This document shows, one piece after another, positions 2,968 to 11,312 of a DNA stretch of 42,166 nucleotides. The first letter of the stretch is position 1, and each line of letters begins with the position of its first letter. Both the position numbers and the translations under genes were made by a program. Under the pieces are notes generated by a model that was not told the DNA's origin, made no database searches, and worked only from the letters and a program-made list of their open reading frames with translations. This DNA is from a virus, in the IMG/VR virus record IMGVR_UViG_3300045988_017219; one strand, 5' to 3'.

Positions 2968-3433
2968 CCCTAGGTTGATTGATGCAAATGCCCTGATGGC
3001 AAGGTTTTTCCGCAAGGAACGTTTGGTGCAGGGTGCGGCCAGCGCAGCTTATAGGGACGCTCAGAAAACGGTATTAGCTGCGCCTACGGTAAGCCTGTGG
3101 CCGGAATGGCGCGACCCAGACAAAGACCCGCCGAAGGTCGAAACTGAAGTTCTTGTTTTAGTTGATTGCGGAAAAGGCTATTGCATTACAACGGCTTTTT
3201 ACGAGGATGGAACGGTGTCTCAGTATGAAAGCGTCTGGCAGTGGGAAGACGTCGACGATTACGGCATTTATGACGAAGAAGAGGATTTGTATAGGCTCCC
3301 GAAAGGCTGGTGGGAATACCGCCACTTTACACCAGAAGATGCGCTGGAATGCCCGATTGATAAGCCGGTTGTTGGCTGGATGCCGCTGCCGCCGAAGGAG
3401 GGAATGCAACATGACCCGCACATGGACACCTGA
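2960..3433 (+). CDS. DUF551-like phage protein
   Basis: ATG at 2960 overlaps the rusA end. The C-terminal VVGWMPLPPKEG is the hallmark ending of DUF551 proteins. Confidence 0.6.
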   Translation: MDNPRLIDANALMARFFRKERLVQGAASAAYRDAQKTVLAAPTVSLWPEWRDPDKDPPKVETEVLVLVDCGKGYCITTAFYEDGTVSQYESVWQWEDVDDYGIYDEEEDLYRLPKGWWEYRHFTPEDALECPIDKPVVGWMPLPPKEGMQHDPHMDT

Positions 3434-3902
3434 AAGCGATGCACCAAAGCCGGACAGCGGCGTGGACTACCACACCGTCAAGTCGTGGTTTAAGCAGCTT
3501 CGGACTATGGACGACCGAATTGACCGCATCCAGCTGGACATCCGGCAGGCGCATGACAAGGCCACGAAGTGCACCGCCAGCATGACCGGAATGCCCGGCG
3601 GATCCGGGCACGGAGACAAAATCGGGCTTTGCGCCGAAGAAACAGACGAAAAGGAGCGCAAGATGCAAGAGTTGCAAGCCGAGCTCGAAGTTTTGCGGAT
3701 GGAAGCAAAGCGCCGAATCAAGTACATTGCAGGCACCAAAAGCAGCGACATGATGCAGGCATGCTTGTATGGCTACTACGTCCAGAACCAAAAGCAGGTC
3801 GTCGTGGCCCGCAGTCTTGGTCTGCCAAACGAAAACCGCGTTTCTTTGTATGTGCGGGATGGATGCAAGCAGCTTGCGCAGATTTGGCATCAATTTATGT
3901 AA
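3411..3902 (+). CDS. Sigma-70 region-4-like / ArpU-RinA-DUF1492-like late transcriptional regulator (candidate)
   Basis: RBS GAAGGAGGG lies before the ATG at 3411. The protein has a MTGMPGGSGHGDKI motif, then a coiled segment, then an HTH-like C-terminus. It is the last gene before the packaging genes. Confidence 0.55.
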   Translation: MTRTWTPESDAPKPDSGVDYHTVKSWFKQLRTMDDRIDRIQLDIRQAHDKATKCTASMTGMPGGSGHGDKIGLCAEETDEKERKMQELQAELEVLRMEAKRRIKYIAGTKSSDMMQACLYGYYVQNQKQVVVARSLGLPNENRVSLYVRDGCKQLAQIWHQFM

Positions 3903-3923
3903 TTTTCTTACATGTTGTCGTTG

Positions 3924-3952
3924 TTGTTGTTACATGTGAGATGTGGTAAAAT
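3924..3952 (+). promoter_or_regulatory. Sigma-70-type promoter with extended -10 (TTGTTG-17 nt-TGgTAAAAT)
   Basis: Read directly. It is flanked by or overlaps two TTACATGT copies (3908-3915 and 3930-3937), each containing the palindrome ACATGT. Confidence 0.5.
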
Positions 3953-4076
3953 TGGTATAAGCGGAACCGCCGAAAGCGGTGAGACGCTTGCCACGCAGCC
4001 TCCAGAACGGTCCCTTCCTTGTGACAGGTTTTCATGCTTTCCTGTTCTCCTTCGCCGTTTTGCGGGCTGCTTCTAT

Positions 4077-4143
4077 GCGAGGTTTGGGAAGCCACATAAC
4101 AGGCTGGCAGTTTTGTGGAACGGTTCGACTCCGTAACCTCGCA
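4077..4143 (+). ncRNA. tRNA-like element lacking canonical D and anticodon arms
   Basis: A perfect 7-bp acceptor stem pairs GCGAGGT 4077-4083 with ACCTCGC 4136-4142. The T-arm has the loop TTCGACT. The interior is one long hairpin (4093-4100/4110-4117) instead of D and anticodon arms. Confidence 0.35.
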
Positions 4144-4261
4144 CCGTATGGCGCATGGACTAGACAACCCGCAAGGCCGCACGTGCAACCTCCCGTGCCG
4201 AGAAAAGGCCTTAGAATCCTTGCCAAGATGTAGCTTTCCTGACAGAATGTGCGCCAACCAA

Positions 4262-4291
4262 CAGCCCCGGCGGCGAACCGGAGCTGTTTTT
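4262..4291 (+). terminator. Rho-independent terminator-like hairpin
   Basis: CAGCCCCGG pairs with CCGGAGCTG (one mismatch) around the loop CGGCGAA, followed by TTTTT. Confidence 0.5.
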
Positions 4292-4296
4292 ATATG

Positions 4297-4365
4297 GCCG
4301 CCTGAGCGCAGTTTGGAGCGCGGCGCGTGTGTGTAGACACGGCTGGTTCGATTCCAAGGGCGGCT
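4297..4365 (+). ncRNA. Degenerate or non-canonical tRNA-like element (pseudo-tRNA?)
   Basis: The acceptor stem is GCCGCCT/GGGCGGC. The D-arm is GCGC-AGTTTGGA-GCGC. The T-loop is TTCGATT but its stem has only 3-4 bp. The anticodon stem CGTGT/ACACG encloses a 6-nt loop (8 nt if the last pair opens), not 7. Confidence 0.35.
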
Positions 4366-4371
4366 TTTTAT

Positions 4372-4447
4372 ATTCCCGTAGTTCAAGTGATGGAACAGCG
4401 GTCTCCAAAACCGCAGGCTGCAGGTTTGAGTCCTGCCGGGAATGCCA
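4372..4447 (+). tRNA. trnW: tRNA-Trp (anticodon CCA), CCA end encoded
   Basis: I hand-folded a full cloverleaf. Acceptor ATTCCCG/CGGGAAT, D-stem GTTC/GAAC, anticodon stem GCGGT/ACCGC with loop CTCCAAA, T-arm GCAGG-TTTGAGT-CCTGC, discriminator G, then CCA. It resembles bacterial tRNA-Trp (A1-U72, GGUCUCCAAAACC). Confidence 0.9.
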
Positions 4448-4581
4448 TCTGCGTGCCCTGTGAGGGGGCCGCGCAGCACGCCGGGTGTCTGGCGGCGTAC
4501 GTTCCGGACACAGCAGCACCCACCGTTTGACGCCTGTCCAACGCAACTGAATGCTGGGCGCTGCTTATTTTAATATTTTGA

Positions 4582-4610
4582 CCGTTCGGATTTCCGGGCG
4601 GTTTTTCTTT
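4582..4610 (+). terminator. Rho-independent terminator immediately upstream of terS
   Basis: An 8-bp stem pairs CCGTTCGG with CCGGGCGG (two G.U pairs) around the loop ATTT, followed by TTTTTCTTTT. Confidence 0.6.
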
Positions 4611-5104
4611 TGCACGAATTTAGAGAGGTGGTGGCGGTGAGCGCGAAGCGGCTGACAGACAGGCAGAAAAAGAAGATCATTGCTGACTATGTGCAGCTGC
4701 AGAGCTACACCAGAGCCGCAAAGCTGAACGACGTGGCAGAAAGCACTGTGCGGAAAATCGTGAAAGATAATCCAAAGTGCGCGGATTTGTGCGCCTTAAA
4801 AAAAGAGCAGAACACGCAGGACATGCTTTCCTACTTAGGCAGCAAGTGCGGGGAAGCACAGAATCTTCTCGGGCTGTACCTTCAGGCGATGGCAGACCGT
4901 AACAAAATCGCGGAAGCAACACTGCCGCAGCTGTCAACGGCGTTCGGCACCATTGTGGACAAGTTTGCCATGCTGGGAGGTCAGAGCGGCGTTGAAGTCC
5001 CGGACGATGGCCTTGCGGAGGCCCTGAATGCCGCCGCAGACCTCAGCCCGCCTGACGATGTGGATCTTCTGCCAAAGGAAGAGGACGACAATGCGGAAAA
5101 GTAA
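4610..5104 (+). CDS. terS: Terminase small subunit (HTH-containing); true start possibly GTG 4637
   Basis: It sits directly upstream of and overlaps terL. The N-terminus is HTH-like (KKKIIADYVQLQSYTRAAKLNDVAESTVRKIV) and the C-terminus is acidic. RBS AGAGAGG lies before the GTG at 4637. Confidence 0.7.
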   Translation: MHEFREVVAVSAKRLTDRQKKKIIADYVQLQSYTRAAKLNDVAESTVRKIVKDNPKCADLCALKKEQNTQDMLSYLGSKCGEAQNLLGLYLQAMADRNKIAEATLPQLSTAFGTIVDKFAMLGGQSGVEVPDDGLAEALNAAADLSPPDDVDLLPKEEDDNAEK

Positions 5105-6338
5105 CGGCTTTCGCTGGAAAGCCCTCAGCCAGCGGCAGAAACAGGTTCTTAGCTGGTGGACACCGCAGAGCGCATACAGCGGATACAACGGCATCATTGC
5201 CGATGGCGCTATCCGCTCGGGCAAGACCTTTGCCATGAGCTTTTCTTTTGTCCAGTGGGCCATGACCTGCTACAGCGGCCAGCAGTTTGCCATGTGCGGC
5301 AAGACCATTGCCAGCTTCCGGCGAAACGTGCTTGGCACGCTCAAGCAGCAGCTTGCAGCCCGTGGCTACAATGTCAAAGAGCATCGGGCAGAAAATTTCA
5401 TGACCGTCAGCAAAGGCGGCAAATCCAACGAGTTTTACTTTTTCGGCGGCAAAGACGAGAGCAGCCAAGACCTGATCCAGGGCATCACGCTGGCTGGGGC
5501 ATTCTTTGACGAGGTGGCGCTGATGCCGCAGAGCTTTGTCAATCAGGCCACTGCCCGCTGCTCCGTCACCGGGTCAAAATTCTGGTTCAACTGCAACCCG
5601 GGCAGCCCACAGCATTGGTTTTATCTTGAGTGGGTGCGGAAATGCCGTTCCCGCAAGATGATGTACCTCCACTTTACGATGGACGACAACTTGTCGCTCT
5701 CCGAGGAAATCAAGGCCAGATACCGCAGCCAGTACAGCGGCGTTTTCTACCAGCGCTACATTCTGGGCCTGTGGACGGTGGCAGAGGGACTTGTATATGA
5801 CATGTTCGACCGCAAAAAGCATGTCGTTGATGAGCTGCCGGAACTGTCCCCCAAAAGCGCCTATGTGGCGTGTGACTTTGGCACCCAGAACGCAACGGTC
5901 TTTTTGCTGCTCCAGAAGCAGGCAGATGCAGACTGCTGGATCGTCACCCGGGAGTACTACTACAGCGGCCGCGAACAGAAGCGGCAAAAGACCGTGGGCG
6001 AGTATGTTGCAGACCTCAAGGCGTGGCTGAACGGTCTCAAGCCGGAGAGGATCATCGTGGACCCCTCTGCCCTGCCCCTGATTACGGAACTGCGCAAGAA
6101 TGGCTTTACCCAGACCCCCGCAAATAACGACGTTCTGAGCGGCATTCTGGACGTGCAGACTATGCTGCAGATCGGGCGGCTGAAGATCTACAAAGACTGC
6201 AAGCACACGCTGGAAGAGTTCGGCGTGTACGCTTGGGACCCGGACAAAGACGACACCGTGCTGAAGGTCAACGACCACTGCATGGACGCTATCCGCTATT
6301 TCGTGCGCACAAAGCGCCTTGTGAAACTGAGGGATTGA
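5091..6338 (+). CDS. terL: Terminase large subunit (PBSX/Terminase_3-like)
   Basis: ATG at 5091 overlaps the terS end. A Walker A motif is present (ADGAIRSGKTFAM). Length and C-terminal nuclease-like region are typical. Confidence 0.9.
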   Translation: MRKSNGFRWKALSQRQKQVLSWWTPQSAYSGYNGIIADGAIRSGKTFAMSFSFVQWAMTCYSGQQFAMCGKTIASFRRNVLGTLKQQLAARGYNVKEHRAENFMTVSKGGKSNEFYFFGGKDESSQDLIQGITLAGAFFDEVALMPQSFVNQATARCSVTGSKFWFNCNPGSPQHWFYLEWVRKCRSRKMMYLHFTMDDNLSLSEEIKARYRSQYSGVFYQRYILGLWTVAEGLVYDMFDRKKHVVDELPELSPKSAYVACDFGTQNATVFLLLQKQADADCWIVTREYYYSGREQKRQKTVGEYVADLKAWLNGLKPERIIVDPSALPLITELRKNGFTQTPANNDVLSGILDVQTMLQIGRLKIYKDCKHTLEEFGVYAWDPDKDDTVLKVNDHCMDAIRYFVRTKRLVKLRD

Positions 6339-8854: not shown

Positions 8855-9073
8855 TCACTGTTCGGATTTATCCGGCACATATTCCAGTATGTCGCCGGGC
8901 TGGCAATTCAGAACGGTGCAAATTTTTTCAAGAACCCCGATGGGGAGCTGTTTGACCGTTCCAAGGCAAAGAGCCGAGATAGTTGGAGGACGAATCCCGG
9001 TTACTTCGGCAAGTTCCTTTTGCGTCATGTTTGCATCTGCGAGTAACGCTTTCAGATGATAACGAATCGACAT
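8855..9073 (-). CDS. XRE-family HTH transcriptional regulator
   Basis: MSIRYHLKALLADANMTQKELAEVTGIRPPTISALC is a classic Cro/CI-type HTH. RBS AGAGGTG lies before the ATG at 9073. It is divergent from the antirepressor cassette. Confidence 0.8.
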   Translation of the reverse strand: MSIRYHLKALLADANMTQKELAEVTGIRPPTISALCLGTVKQLPIGVLEKICTVLNCQPGDILEYVPDKSEQ

Positions 9074-9169
9074 CTCTTTCACCTCTTTCTTACATCTATA
9101 ATACTACGACTTTCGTTTCAAATCAATACGAAAAAAGAAATTATTTTCAAGAAACTAACGAAAAACGTA

Positions 9170-9198
9170 TTGACTGATTACGCAAATCGTAGTATAAT
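9170..9198 (+). promoter_or_regulatory. Consensus-like sigma-70 promoter TTGACT-17 nt-TATAAT driving the antirepressor cassette
   Basis: Read directly. The short inverted repeat CGTA...TACG brackets the -35 box. Confidence 0.7.
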
Positions 9199-9235
9199 AT
9201 ATCTTGTGAGTGAGAGGGGCGGAAAGGAGACGCCC

Positions 9236-9331
9236 ATGAAGTTCAAGGATTTCAAGAAGCTGAACCCCGAAGAACAGCGCAAGAAGTTTGAACAGTACAA
9301 AAAAGAGTGGTTAGCTGCTCGTAACAACTAA
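9236..9331 (+). CDS. Conserved 31-aa Lys-rich peptide MKFKDFKKLNPEEQRKKFEQYKKEWLAARNN
   Basis: The SD AAGGAG lies in the loop of a GGGCG/CGCCC hairpin just before the ATG. A paralog at 27281..27376 (-) shares 24 of 31 residues, and many of the nucleotide differences are synonymous. Confidence 0.6.
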   Translation: MKFKDFKKLNPEEQRKKFEQYKKEWLAARNN

Positions 9332-9426
9332 CCACTCGAAGATAAGAGAAACCAACCCAACAAAAAAGCTCCTCTTACTCACATTTTATTTTATTTATAA
9401 GAAAAAGTCAAGTAAAATGTGAGGTC

Positions 9427-9717
9427 ATGATGATGCAAACAAGCAAAATCGCAAGCGCAGAGTTTGAGTTGGACATGGTTTCCGGTGAGCTCCAGACGAT
9501 GCACAACCTGTTGAACATCTTTGCAAACTGGTTTGAGGAGACCCACAAGACGGATGATCTGATCCGCCCACGCAACGAGCGTGATGTTTCCCGCCTGTGG
9601 GATGAAGCGCCTATGTATGATTCCATCCTGTGCACGCTGTTCGGCAGCATCTCTGGTCTGGAGAAAGAAGTAAACGCAATCATTGATGAAAGCAATAAGG
9701 AGATTTCTCATGTCTAA
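9427..9717 (+). CDS. Hypothetical 96-aa protein, paralog of 26906..27190
   Basis: RBS GAGG. It shares blocks with the paralog: ELELD.VSGEL.TMH.LLNIFANWFEETHKTD, EAPMY and GLEKEV. Confidence 0.65.
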   Translation: MMMQTSKIASAEFELDMVSGELQTMHNLLNIFANWFEETHKTDDLIRPRNERDVSRLWDEAPMYDSILCTLFGSISGLEKEVNAIIDESNKEISHV

Positions 9718-10465: not shown

Positions 10466-10477
10466 CTGAATCACCGA

Positions 10478-10507
10478 CCCTGCCCCACACCGGGGCGGGG
10501 TTTTGTT
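10478..10507 (+). terminator. Rho-independent terminator ending the antirepressor cassette
   Basis: CCCTGCCCC-ACACC-GGGGCGGGG followed by TTTTGTT. Confidence 0.65.
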
Positions 10508-10979: not shown

Positions 10980-11195
10980 ATGAATTTGGAGAAAATGTTC
11001 AAAACACCAAAAGAAAAGTTCCTGCCCGATGATGTGAAAACTGCGCACTGCGAGGCAGAAGACCTTTTCCTTGAGCTTGCAACGCAGCTTGACGCACTTC
11101 CTGAAAGCCGAGAAAAAAGTCTGTGCATGACAAAATTACAGGAAGCGAAGTTTTGGGCGGTCGAATGTATCACCAAAGTTGCACGCAAAAACTAA
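10980..11195 (+). CDS. Hypothetical 71-aa protein
   Basis: ORF of good coding look, followed by a hairpin plus T-tract. No family recognised. Confidence 0.5.
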   Translation: MNLEKMFKTPKEKFLPDDVKTAHCEAEDLFLELATQLDALPESREKSLCMTKLQEAKFWAVECITKVARKN

Positions 11196-11235
11196 ATACT
11201 CAGCGGTTGGCGCACAGCGTCAGCCGCTTTTTTAT

Positions 11236-11312
11236 GCCGCTTTAGCTCAGGCCGGCAGAGCACCGGATTTGTAATCCGGGGGCCGTGGGTTCAAGCCCCA
11301 CAGGCGGCACCA
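11236..11312 (+). tRNA. trnT: tRNA-Thr (anticodon TGT), CCA end encoded
   Basis: I hand-folded a cloverleaf. Acceptor GCCGCTT/AGGCGGC, D-arm GCTC-AGGCCGGCA-GAGC, anticodon stem CCGGA/TCCGG with loop TTTGTAA, T-arm GTGGG-TTCAAGC-CCCAC, discriminator A, then CCA. Confidence 0.9.

Follow-up and report, generated by a model that had tools for sequence, protein, structure and literature searches.

We analysed a stretch of viral DNA of 42,166 nucleotides (nt), the IMG/VR virus record IMGVR_UViG_3300045988_017219, referred to here over its full length as the window. Between the gene of a transcriptional regulator and terS, the first late gene, the plus strand carries a gene-free RNA island. We show that this island is a modular, conserved and noncoding cassette, probably a late leader and then a variation on the tRNA operons known from late leaders of other phages. 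Three of its RNA motifs and its tRNA-like RNAs are new in that no described family covers them, nothing beyond tRNA giving a match in Rfam 15. The features of the locus are the following, with plus-strand features marked (+):

3411-3902 (+): gene of the upstream regulator, 163 amino acids (aa), ribosome-binding site (RBS) AAGGAGGG
3903-4636 (+): gene-free RNA island between the regulator gene and the start of terS at 4637
3905-3915 and 3927-3937 (+): two 11-nt direct repeats TT(C/G)TTACATGT, 22 bp apart, 5' of the promoter and overlapping it
3924-3929 (+): weak -35-like TTGTTG, read from the sequence
3944-3952 (+): extended -10-like element TGgTAAAAT, read from the sequence
3957-4076 (+): 5' leader RNA, 120 nt, by folding and covariation; two-tier hairpin P1 (3958-3963/3985-3990 and 3966-3970/3976-3980), P2 (3995-4001/4064-4070), P3 (4003-4011/4054-4062), P4 (4023-4028/4041-4046)
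4077-4146 (+): tRNA-like element 1 (TL1), by a T-loop and acceptor search and a sub-threshold tRNA-Sec match
4147-4293 (+): small-RNA module M3, by alifold and covariation; closing helix (4149-4156/4249-4256), hairpin b (4173-4183/4194-4212, loop UGCAACCUCC at 4184-4193), hairpin c (4216-4220/4244-4248)
4260-4270/4278-4288 (+): predicted terminator T1, then U5; called by the terminator scan at 4269-4288
4296-4370 (+): tRNA-like element 2 (TL2), tRNA shape 4296-4365, then U5
4372-4447 (+): tRNA-Trp(CCA), by ARAGORN; Rfam tRNA score 59.7 bits against a gathering threshold of 29; CCA encoded
4448-4579 (+): 3' small-RNA module, by alifold and covariation; H1 (4450-4459/4466-4475), H2 (4485-4492/4504-4511), H3 (4512-4520/4557-4565)
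H3 and following (+): predicted terminator T2, H3 then UUAUUUUAAUAUUUU, hairpin and U-run ending 4565-4579
4580-4612 (+): predicted terminator T3 (scan 4580-4603), GACCGUUCGG-AUUU-CCGGGCGGUU then UUUCUUUU
4637-5104 (+): terS, GTG start, RBS GAGAGGUGG at 4623-4631, weak HTH_23 match
5028-6338 (+): terL, Terminase_6N match

An earlier note on this DNA had described the stretch as noncoding, which agrees with the absence of any conserved open reading frame (ORF) in 3903-4636 and of any Pfam match among the ORFs overlapping the island. The longest of these, an antisense frame of 194 aa (3895-4479), is interrupted by stops or frameshifts in relatives. The island is bounded by a promoter-like -10 element at its start and by strong terminators at its end. 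The description of the island as highly structured holds for helices recovered by comparison and does not hold for folding energy, as the island as a whole reaches a z score of only -0.84 against shuffled sequences, and energies beyond those of shuffles are confined to the 5' leader (z = -3.4) and terminator T3 (z = -4.4, 0/200 shuffles). Thermodynamics alone thus fails to single out the island, and the case for structure rests on comparative evidence.

For this comparison, IMG/VR was searched with two flanking proteins, yielding 127 loci, and with a 16-mer from the island, yielding 118 further loci, and 101 unique islands of 608-1440 nt were extracted. More than 100 related IMG/VR contigs carry the cassette, flanked by a homologue of the regulator on one side and by terminase genes on the other, and in GenBank most of the island is matched at 77-82% identity by two human-faecal phage scaffolds that carry no annotation. 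By blastn the island is found at 75-97% identity in 128 of the first 130 loci, in which ARAGORN calls tRNA-Trp 118 times. All 101 islands follow one plan, consisting of leader, a first tRNA or tRNA-like position (slot 1, occupied by TL1 in the window), M3 with its terminator, TL2, tRNA-Trp and the 3' module with its terminator. Thereafter a long tRNA of 135 nt, or a small ORF together with tRNA-Met/Lys/Thr, may follow, and then the last terminator and terS. The extra tRNAs of the relatives vary, being Lys(UUU), Thr(UGU), Asn(GUU) or Met(CAU). Two relatives hold genes at the island's 3' end: in L056 (2553-2790) the last tRNA is preceded by an ORF of about 80 aa that has a strong RBS, and in L070 (2070-2990) a DNA methyltransferase-like ORF, its identity read from sequence, lies between T3 and terS.

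Within this plan the module types re-assort, are inserted or are lost independently among islands, and the blastn breakpoints (about 3942/3946, 4009/4017, 4077-4084, 4121, 4243/4247, 4283/4284, 4364/4365, 4445/4447 and 4568/4573) coincide with module borders and T loops. The window itself joins a W-type leader to an A-type M3. Independently swapped modules, internal terminators and tRNA-type processing signals argue for an array and not for one ornate RNA. In more distant phages, with regulators 45-72% identical and other terminase families, the same modules occupy a gene-free gap of 0.9-1.2 kb after the regulator gene. A regulator homologue is present in 101 of 118 loci found by the leader motif (median identity 38%), terS often being unrelated, so that the conserved unit is the regulator together with the RNA cassette. 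A 16-mer scan of genome contigs for a host gave almost only chance matches; the one real match (L224) is a 12.7-kb contig binned to Barnesiella, probably mis-binned.

The 5' leader has a minimum free energy of -45.5 kcal/mol, and its z score on the minus strand is only -0.35. In 25 dereplicated versions the 15 pairs of P2/P3 are 99.5% paired, compared with 92.4% when shuffled (0/500) and 37-47% when slid; double changes occur in four pairs, one pair is represented by five pair types and every one-sided change results in G.U. P1 exists in at least five unrelated sequences, all folding into the same two-tier hairpin. The leader ends in an invariant CUUCUAU (4070-4076) directly before the 5' end of the slot-1 tRNA or tRNA-like element. 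Linkage between the type of the leader interior and the type of M3 prompted a candidate leader-M3 pairing, CUUGGCA/UGCCAAG, which we discarded as its single changes are, by eye, uncompensated.

For M3, 48 unique sequences give an alifold consensus of 33 pairs, 99.6% paired compared with 95.9% when shuffled (0/500), with 88 G.U cells versus 3 A.C cells and one pair being U.G in 48 of 48. Five strongly divergent versions (151-213 nt) keep the same architecture, sharing a closing helix GRCGCA/UGCGYC, a hairpin displaying AACCUCC and an AAUCC...GGAU hairpin, and the AACCUCC motif occurs in 57 of 65 unique M3 versions. The sequence of T1 is replaced or inverted among M3 versions, its hairpin and U-run always being kept. 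In two relatives (L072, L113) the T1 hairpin has the opposite orientation to that in the window, the U-run remaining on the unchanged strand, and the inverted form, with a loop UUCGCCG on a CCGG/CCGG stem, resembles a tRNA T arm. In a type C M3 (L070, 1560-1580) the loop motif is lengthened to CACCUCCUUUCU, a 12-nt match to what we take to be the 3' end of Firmicute 16S rRNA.

The 3' module, noted before as a structured stretch at 4448-4580, is borne out by comparison: 28 pairs, derived by alifold from 74 unique sequences, are 97.2% paired compared with 93.0% when shuffled (0/500), with double changes in 12 pairs and 306 G.U versus 34 A.C cells. An additional helix (4480-4483/4493-4496) shows a GC-to-CG swap (64:10) and either competes or forms a pseudoknot with H2; H3 takes the form of a simple terminator hairpin in some of the relatives. 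Throughout, the conserved helices show compensatory changes together with one-sided changes, the latter being G.U-compatible on the plus strand only, and the U-runs lie 3' of the hairpins on the plus strand even where T1 is inverted. The asymmetry between G.U and A.C and the position of the U-runs assign the structures to a plus-strand RNA. A reading of M3 on the minus strand was rejected because of the 88 to 3 ratio and the plus-strand U-run.

Of the long-range helices noted before, 3995-4011/4054-4070 and 4149-4156/4249-4256 are confirmed by covariation. Two complementarities that can be paired by hand, both recovered by an inverted-repeat scan, were not retained: 4060-4069/4165-4174 competes with P2/P3 and, by reading, is not kept in other M3 types, and 4121-4133/4268-4280 involves the loop of T1, a hairpin that is inverted in some relatives.

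Three elements of the island have the shape of a tRNA, and a search for a T loop with an acceptor stem recovers exactly TL1, TL2 and tRNA-Trp. The tRNA-Trp passes the tRNA model (RF00005), showing a cloverleaf and a 7-nt anticodon loop, and is canonical as previously described. The two further tRNA-like elements proposed alongside it are likewise real in shape: permissive Rfam searches place the tRNA-Sec model on 4076-4143 at 21.2 bits and on 4296-4365 at 18.6 bits, below the gathering threshold of 47, and both elements have an acceptor stacked on a T arm (8+4 bp in TL1, 8+3 bp in TL2, about 12 bp) and a UUCRANY loop. Neither reaches the gathering score of RF00005 or has a 7-nt anticodon loop, and ARAGORN is silent on both.

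TL1 has an acceptor stem of 8 bp (GCGAGGUU/AACCUCGC), a T stem of 4 bp (ACGG/CCGU) with the T loop UUCGACU, a D-like stem of 3 bp with a tetraloop and the 3' tail A-C-C-G; the loop at the anticodon position measures 9 nt, and 10 nt in the common type among relatives. TL1 is tRNA-shaped but unable to decode. TL2 combines an 8-bp acceptor, GGCCGCC(U)/(A)GGGCGGCU, with a canonical D arm, a T loop UUCGAUU on a stem of 3 bp and an anticodon-like arm CGUGU-GUGUAG-ACACG, in which the loop has 6 nt (9 nt in the alternative arm). Nearly all relatives carry TL2, with acceptor and D arms that hardly vary and with one of two versions of the anticodon arm, whose loop changes in length by (GU)n.

In the relatives, slot 1 is filled by tRNA-like RNAs of 62-100 nt, by a tRNA whose anticodon loop has 8 nt, by long tRNAs or by a canonical tRNA-Thr. 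In 51 unique slot-1 elements the acceptor positions 3-7 each occur with 3-5 pair types, compensatory changes maintain the acceptor, T and anticodon-like stems, and 49 end in N-C-C-(A/G), indicating a CCA-type 3' end. The near-canonical tRNA with the 8-nt anticodon loop CUAUUGAA occupies this slot in L086 (2366-2442), L090, L105, L291 and L308 and is labelled 'tRNA-???(attg)' by ARAGORN; it might decode quadruplets or be a tRNA-Gln that has been disabled. The long tRNAs (133-136 nt; L056 2365-2500, L001 1366-1501, L106 926-1058, L369 4712-4850) have a full cloverleaf, score 41-50 bits, above the Rfam tRNA threshold, and are all missed by ARAGORN. Their variable arm of about 65 nt covaries between versions, and their anticodon loop is CAUUUAA or GAGUUAA, placing A at the U33 position and UUU or GUU as the anticodon. 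L070 carries a hybrid of TL2 and a tRNA.

Directly 5' of nearly every TL2, tRNA-Trp, long tRNA and Lys/Met/Thr tRNA stands the trinucleotide UAU, and in one relative (L372) two units of the form 'hairpin-CUGCUUCUAU-tRNA-like' occur. Since bacterial RNase P favours U at position -1, we read the conserved UAU as putative RNase P sites.

T1, T2 and T3 each have the form of an intrinsic terminator, a GC-rich hairpin followed by a U-run on the transcribed strand. The earlier note had mentioned two terminator-like hairpins; the scan calls T1 and T3, and the hairpin and U-run of T2 add a third. Relatives show 87-100% identity in T3 and in the terS leader. The distance from the end of T3 to the start of terS is 25 nt, too short for a promoter, and neither sequence reading nor the scan shows a promoter-like site between them, so that terS is reached only through T1, T2 and T3. 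Two further strong plus-strand terminators lie inside the late operon (10476-10502 and 11202-11228). Terminators before and inside the late operon make antitermination or regulated read-through likely, the agent being the leader RNA, the regulator or both.

The promoter described in the earlier note is confirmed in its extended -10 element, TGgTAAAAT, and in the presence of two TTACATGT copies, the only two in the window (3908-3915 and 3930-3937). Less favourable are the weak -35, because of which the promoter consensus scan does not list TGgTAAAAT, and the count of the 8-mer, which alone is within chance (at least two copies in 20 of 100 shuffles). The complete TT(C/G)TTACATGT repeats are a candidate operator to which the upstream regulator might bind, and the 5' end of the transcript probably lies near 3957-3959. 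Among relatives, the TAnnnT -10 hexamer stands at a constant distance from hairpin P1 in about ten otherwise unrelated upstream contexts, several of which hold short repeats of their own. The upstream DNA varies with the type of the C-terminal helix-turn-helix (HTH) of the regulator, the -10 element and the RNA remaining constant, which suggests that the promoter depends on the regulator.

The regulator of the window matches phrog_36, 'transcriptional regulator' (E = 2.9e-08); a relative's regulator matches DUF1492 at 28.7 bits, above the cutoff, and weak matches to sigma-70 region 4 are also found among relatives. In an AlphaFold2 (AF2) model (predicted local distance difference test score, pLDDT, 84.5) the protein forms a long helical hairpin and, at its C-terminus, a sigma-region-4-like HTH, and in a fold search the C-terminal domain resembles sigma region 4 with a probability of 0.87-0.91, a similarity that is local only; the fold search gave no significant match for the whole protein. 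The regulators form one family with a conserved N-terminal part and a variable C-terminal HTH. Their N-terminal motif, M-x-R-T-W-T-P-E/D-x-D-x-P-K-P ... V-K-A-W-F ... G-D-K-V/I-G, is conserved in relatives, and their design is modular, a conserved N-terminal half being joined to a swappable C-terminal sigma-region-4-like HTH.

These observations are best accommodated by a model, to which we assign a probability of roughly 0.55, according to which the late operon begins with the island as its untranslated part, a polycistronic precursor being cut at its tRNA-shaped units and tandem terminators gating terS. A promoter just 3' of the regulator gene would drive one plus-strand transcript, probably depending on the sigma-region-4-like regulator, which would bind the TT(C/G)TTACATGT repeats. 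This transcript would comprise, in order, the 120-nt leader, TL1, M3 with T1 (about 150 nt), TL2, tRNA-Trp, an RNA of about 125 nt with T2, then T3, terS, terL and the other late genes. The tRNA-shaped units would serve as punctuation, RNase P cutting after UAU and 3' tRNA processing releasing the next RNA, so that the precursor would yield tRNA-Trp, two CCA-type tRNA-like RNAs and three stable structured RNAs. With three tandem terminators only read-through polymerase would get to the packaging genes, and read-through would probably be aided by antitermination through the promoter-proximal leader and/or the regulator. The tRNA-type products would most likely sustain translation or divert host defences that target tRNAs. 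As Trp has a single codon, codon bias cannot explain the presence of tRNA-Trp, and TL1 and TL2, having no anticodon, could act at most as decoys against a tRNA-cleaving defence.

Several points weigh against this late-operon model. The comparison establishes conservation, strand, helices, tRNA-like geometry, terminator hairpins and linkage to the regulator; where the transcript starts, how it is processed and read through, how stable its pieces are and what they do in trans is deduced from the DNA. The fold search, with its local similarity to sigma region 4, led us to reject the regulator as a Q-like protein, and a leader removed by RNase P would deprive an antiterminator of the put type of its tether. 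M3 (z = -0.74) and the 3' module (z = -1.1) fold no better than shuffles, and the minus strand of M3 in the window beats its own shuffles (z = -3.45). The alignments used for scoring were also the source of the consensus structures, and since the relatives are closely related, the counts of covarying cells are not counts of independent events. With its defective T stem, length-polymorphic loop and lack of an encoded CCA, TL2 may be decaying. Finally, the extended -10 could be constitutive, and the cassette would then be a moron expressed in the lysogen instead of a late leader.

This last possibility, which we consider unlikely, describes the cassette as autonomous, its RNAs being expressed from the prophage by a constitutive promoter, ended by the cassette's own terminators and acting in counter-defence or superinfection, and the late genes being transcribed by polymerases reading through from further upstream. 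It would account for an extended -10 in the window that needs no activator, for a cassette bracketed by promoter and strong terminators, and for the insertion of accessory genes here in relatives (the small ORF and the DNA methyltransferase, read from sequence), and the tRNA repertoire fits known targets of tRNA-cleaving defences (PMC12409363). However, no more than about half of the promoter variants, as read from sequence, have the TGn extension, changes in the upstream DNA go along with changes in the regulator HTH, every relative examined has the cassette at this one place, immediately ahead of the terminase genes, and no other candidate late promoter is seen. Quite improbable, in our view, is a decaying tRNA array in which only tRNA-Trp still works, TL1 and TL2 being tRNA pseudogenes and the spacers remnants of flanking sequence recombined at T loops. 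Mosaic breakpoints at T loops, the 3-bp T stem and (GU)n slippage of TL2, the missing 7-nt anticodon loop of TL1 and the TL2/tRNA hybrid of L070 would suit such decay, but compensatory changes maintain the slot-1 stems and all spacer helices, the NCC tail is kept in 49 of 51 slot-1 elements, and the modules persist where regulators are only 26-45% identical.

A relationship to ROOL or GOLLD had been raised in the earlier note together with the alternative of an undescribed phage RNA, and it is the alternative that proves the better half of that interpretation, nothing but tRNA matching Rfam 15. ROOL and GOLLD are noncoding RNAs often residing in Firmicute prophages and often beside tRNA genes. 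The island is likewise noncoding and beside a tRNA, and its total of about 650 nt, its prophage setting and its many helices are what one large ornate RNA of this or a new kind, folding as a whole and assembling around the tRNAs, would offer. We ran cmscan against Rfam 15 at gathering thresholds, and permissively with E up to 10 on 3700-4800 and E up to 1 on nine divergent relatives. In the window only tRNA reaches the gathering threshold (ARAGORN likewise finding tRNA-Trp), and on 3700-4800 the permissive scan gives only tRNA-type matches and weak matches to Hrs13 and sau-6072 over the last terminator. The nine relatives give only tRNA and a few sub-threshold matches that are antisense to tRNAs or unrelated. 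Neither ROOL (RF03087) nor GOLLD (RF01998) matches at gathering thresholds, on 3700-4800 at E up to 10 or in the nine relatives at E up to 1, Rfam matches to raiA, RNase P or introns are equally absent from these scans, and neither tmRNA nor permuted tmRNA is found by ARAGORN in the window and 130 loci or by Rfam. The island shows neither the single fold nor the joint inheritance of domains typical of large ornate RNAs: unlike ROOL and GOLLD it consists of independent modules with internal terminators, the modules re-assort independently, and no conserved pairing between modules was found, the candidates of the inverted-repeat scan failing in relatives. A single ornate RNA is accordingly very improbable. 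Equally remote is an action of the conserved inverted repeats as DNA, as a pac site or a recognition region of the terminase small subunit. The position of the island directly 5' of terS and the high identity of T3 and the terS leader would agree with this, but G.U is tolerated and A.C is not (88 versus 3 and 306 versus 34 cells), a strand-specific signature of RNA, and the cassette is unchanged where terS and terL are of different families.

A more speculative and rather unlikely proposal holds that the cassette supplies late-made RNA mimics of the translation apparatus together with a leader antiterminator of the put kind. The tRNA-shaped RNAs with CCA-type ends and no anticodon would then mimic tRNA, and the AACCUCC loop of M3 would copy the anti-Shine-Dalgarno end of 16S rRNA. 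These RNAs might decoy or inhibit host immunity directed against tRNA and rRNA, or capture Shine-Dalgarno sites. If true, the leader would be the first antiterminator of the put kind in a Firmicute-type phage.

Many uncultivated human-gut phage contigs carry the cassette, 0.7-1.4 kb of conserved noncoding RNA where the late operon would begin, and standard annotation shows a single tRNA at this place. Leader, M3 and 3' module are candidates for new RNA families, with comparative support sufficient for covariance models. The window adds an unusual 8/4 tRNA-type RNA without anticodon, and the relatives add tRNAs with an 8-nt loop and with a variable arm of about 65 nt. As the tRNA set of the relatives fits the targets of tRNA-cleaving defences, the island is a test bed for phage tRNA mimics. 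It also allows a test of late transcription past tandem terminators in phages without Q or N.

Some further features of the window lie outside the island. A tRNA-Thr(UGU) at 11236-11312, within the structural gene block, stands right after the plus-strand terminator 11202-11228, and its upstream junction UUUUUAU|GCC (in the region 11190-11312) is the same as in the island. With the tRNA-Thr of a relative it shares 85% identity, and with a relative's tRNA-Lys(UUU), located on the same scaffold, 83%; a single tRNA backbone seems to have had its anticodon switched. Among the early or middle genes upstream of the island (1197-2399 and 2521-2967) are those of a PAPS-reductase-like protein (phrog_424, E = 1e-27) and of a RusA-like resolvase (phrog_34). 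An accessory region inside the late genes (9056-9711) contains promoter-like sites on both strands, TTGACT-17-TATAAT at 9170-9198 (+) and TTGACT-17-TAAAAT at 9411-9383 (-), as well as a strong minus-strand terminator at 9337-9305.

As to described systems, candidate structured RNAs have been predicted in IMG/VR by the thousand in a large survey, some of them tRNA-like (PMC10690425). Allo-tRNAs and polycistrons of irregular tRNAs are described by Mukai et al. 2017 (PMC5389517), where tRNA-Other of Bacillus cereus is cited as well, and some irregular tRNA-shaped RNAs are charged yet unused in decoding (PMC5389517). TL1 resembles allo-tRNAs in its 8/4 acceptor/T arrangement and its short D stem with tetraloop, and the presence of several tRNA-shaped RNAs in one transcription unit recalls the irregular-tRNA polycistrons. 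Unlike allo-tRNAs, TL1 has neither a long variable arm nor a 7-nt anticodon loop, and its setting is the late leader of a gut phage. Phage T5 replaces the targets of PARIS AriB, Lys(UUU), Thr(UGU) and Asn(GUU), with its own tRNAs (PMC12409363), and anticodon-loop variants of mycobacteriophage tRNAs are proposed to escape anticodon nucleases (PMC10264068). The same three anticodons, Lys(UUU), Thr(UGU) and Asn(GUU), occur in the islands of relatives, and the window has its tRNA-Thr(UGU) at 11236. The long tRNAs of relatives, with their loops CAUUUAA or GAGUUAA, are reminiscent of the mycobacteriophage variants.

Punctuation by tRNA-like elements is known elsewhere from MALAT1-mascRNA and from tRNA-linked small RNAs of bacterial tRNA operon spacers. 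As in MALAT1-mascRNA, tRNA-shaped elements are present whose recognition by RNase P and RNase Z would define the ends of their neighbours; here, in contrast, the units are in tandem in a bacterial virus and the tRNA-like pieces keep their NCC(A) end. The put RNA of HK022 is a cis-acting processive antiterminator. The leader of the island is similar in layout only, being promoter-proximal, having two stem-loop domains (P1 and P2-P4) and lying upstream of T1-T3, and differs in being longer (120 nt) and in probably being cut off by RNase P.

In the Stx phage 933W the tRNA genes ileZ-argN-argO lie between Q/PR' and stx, and in lambda the order is Q-PR'-6S RNA-tR'. From these lambdoid late leaders the island differs in its regulator, which is sigma-region-4-like and not Q, in its far greater length, in its conserved structured RNAs and non-decoding tRNA-like RNAs, and in an antitermination that is so far a proposal. 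The order of elements is the same, a regulator gene being followed by the late promoter, by a noncoding leader with terminators and tRNAs, and by the late genes.

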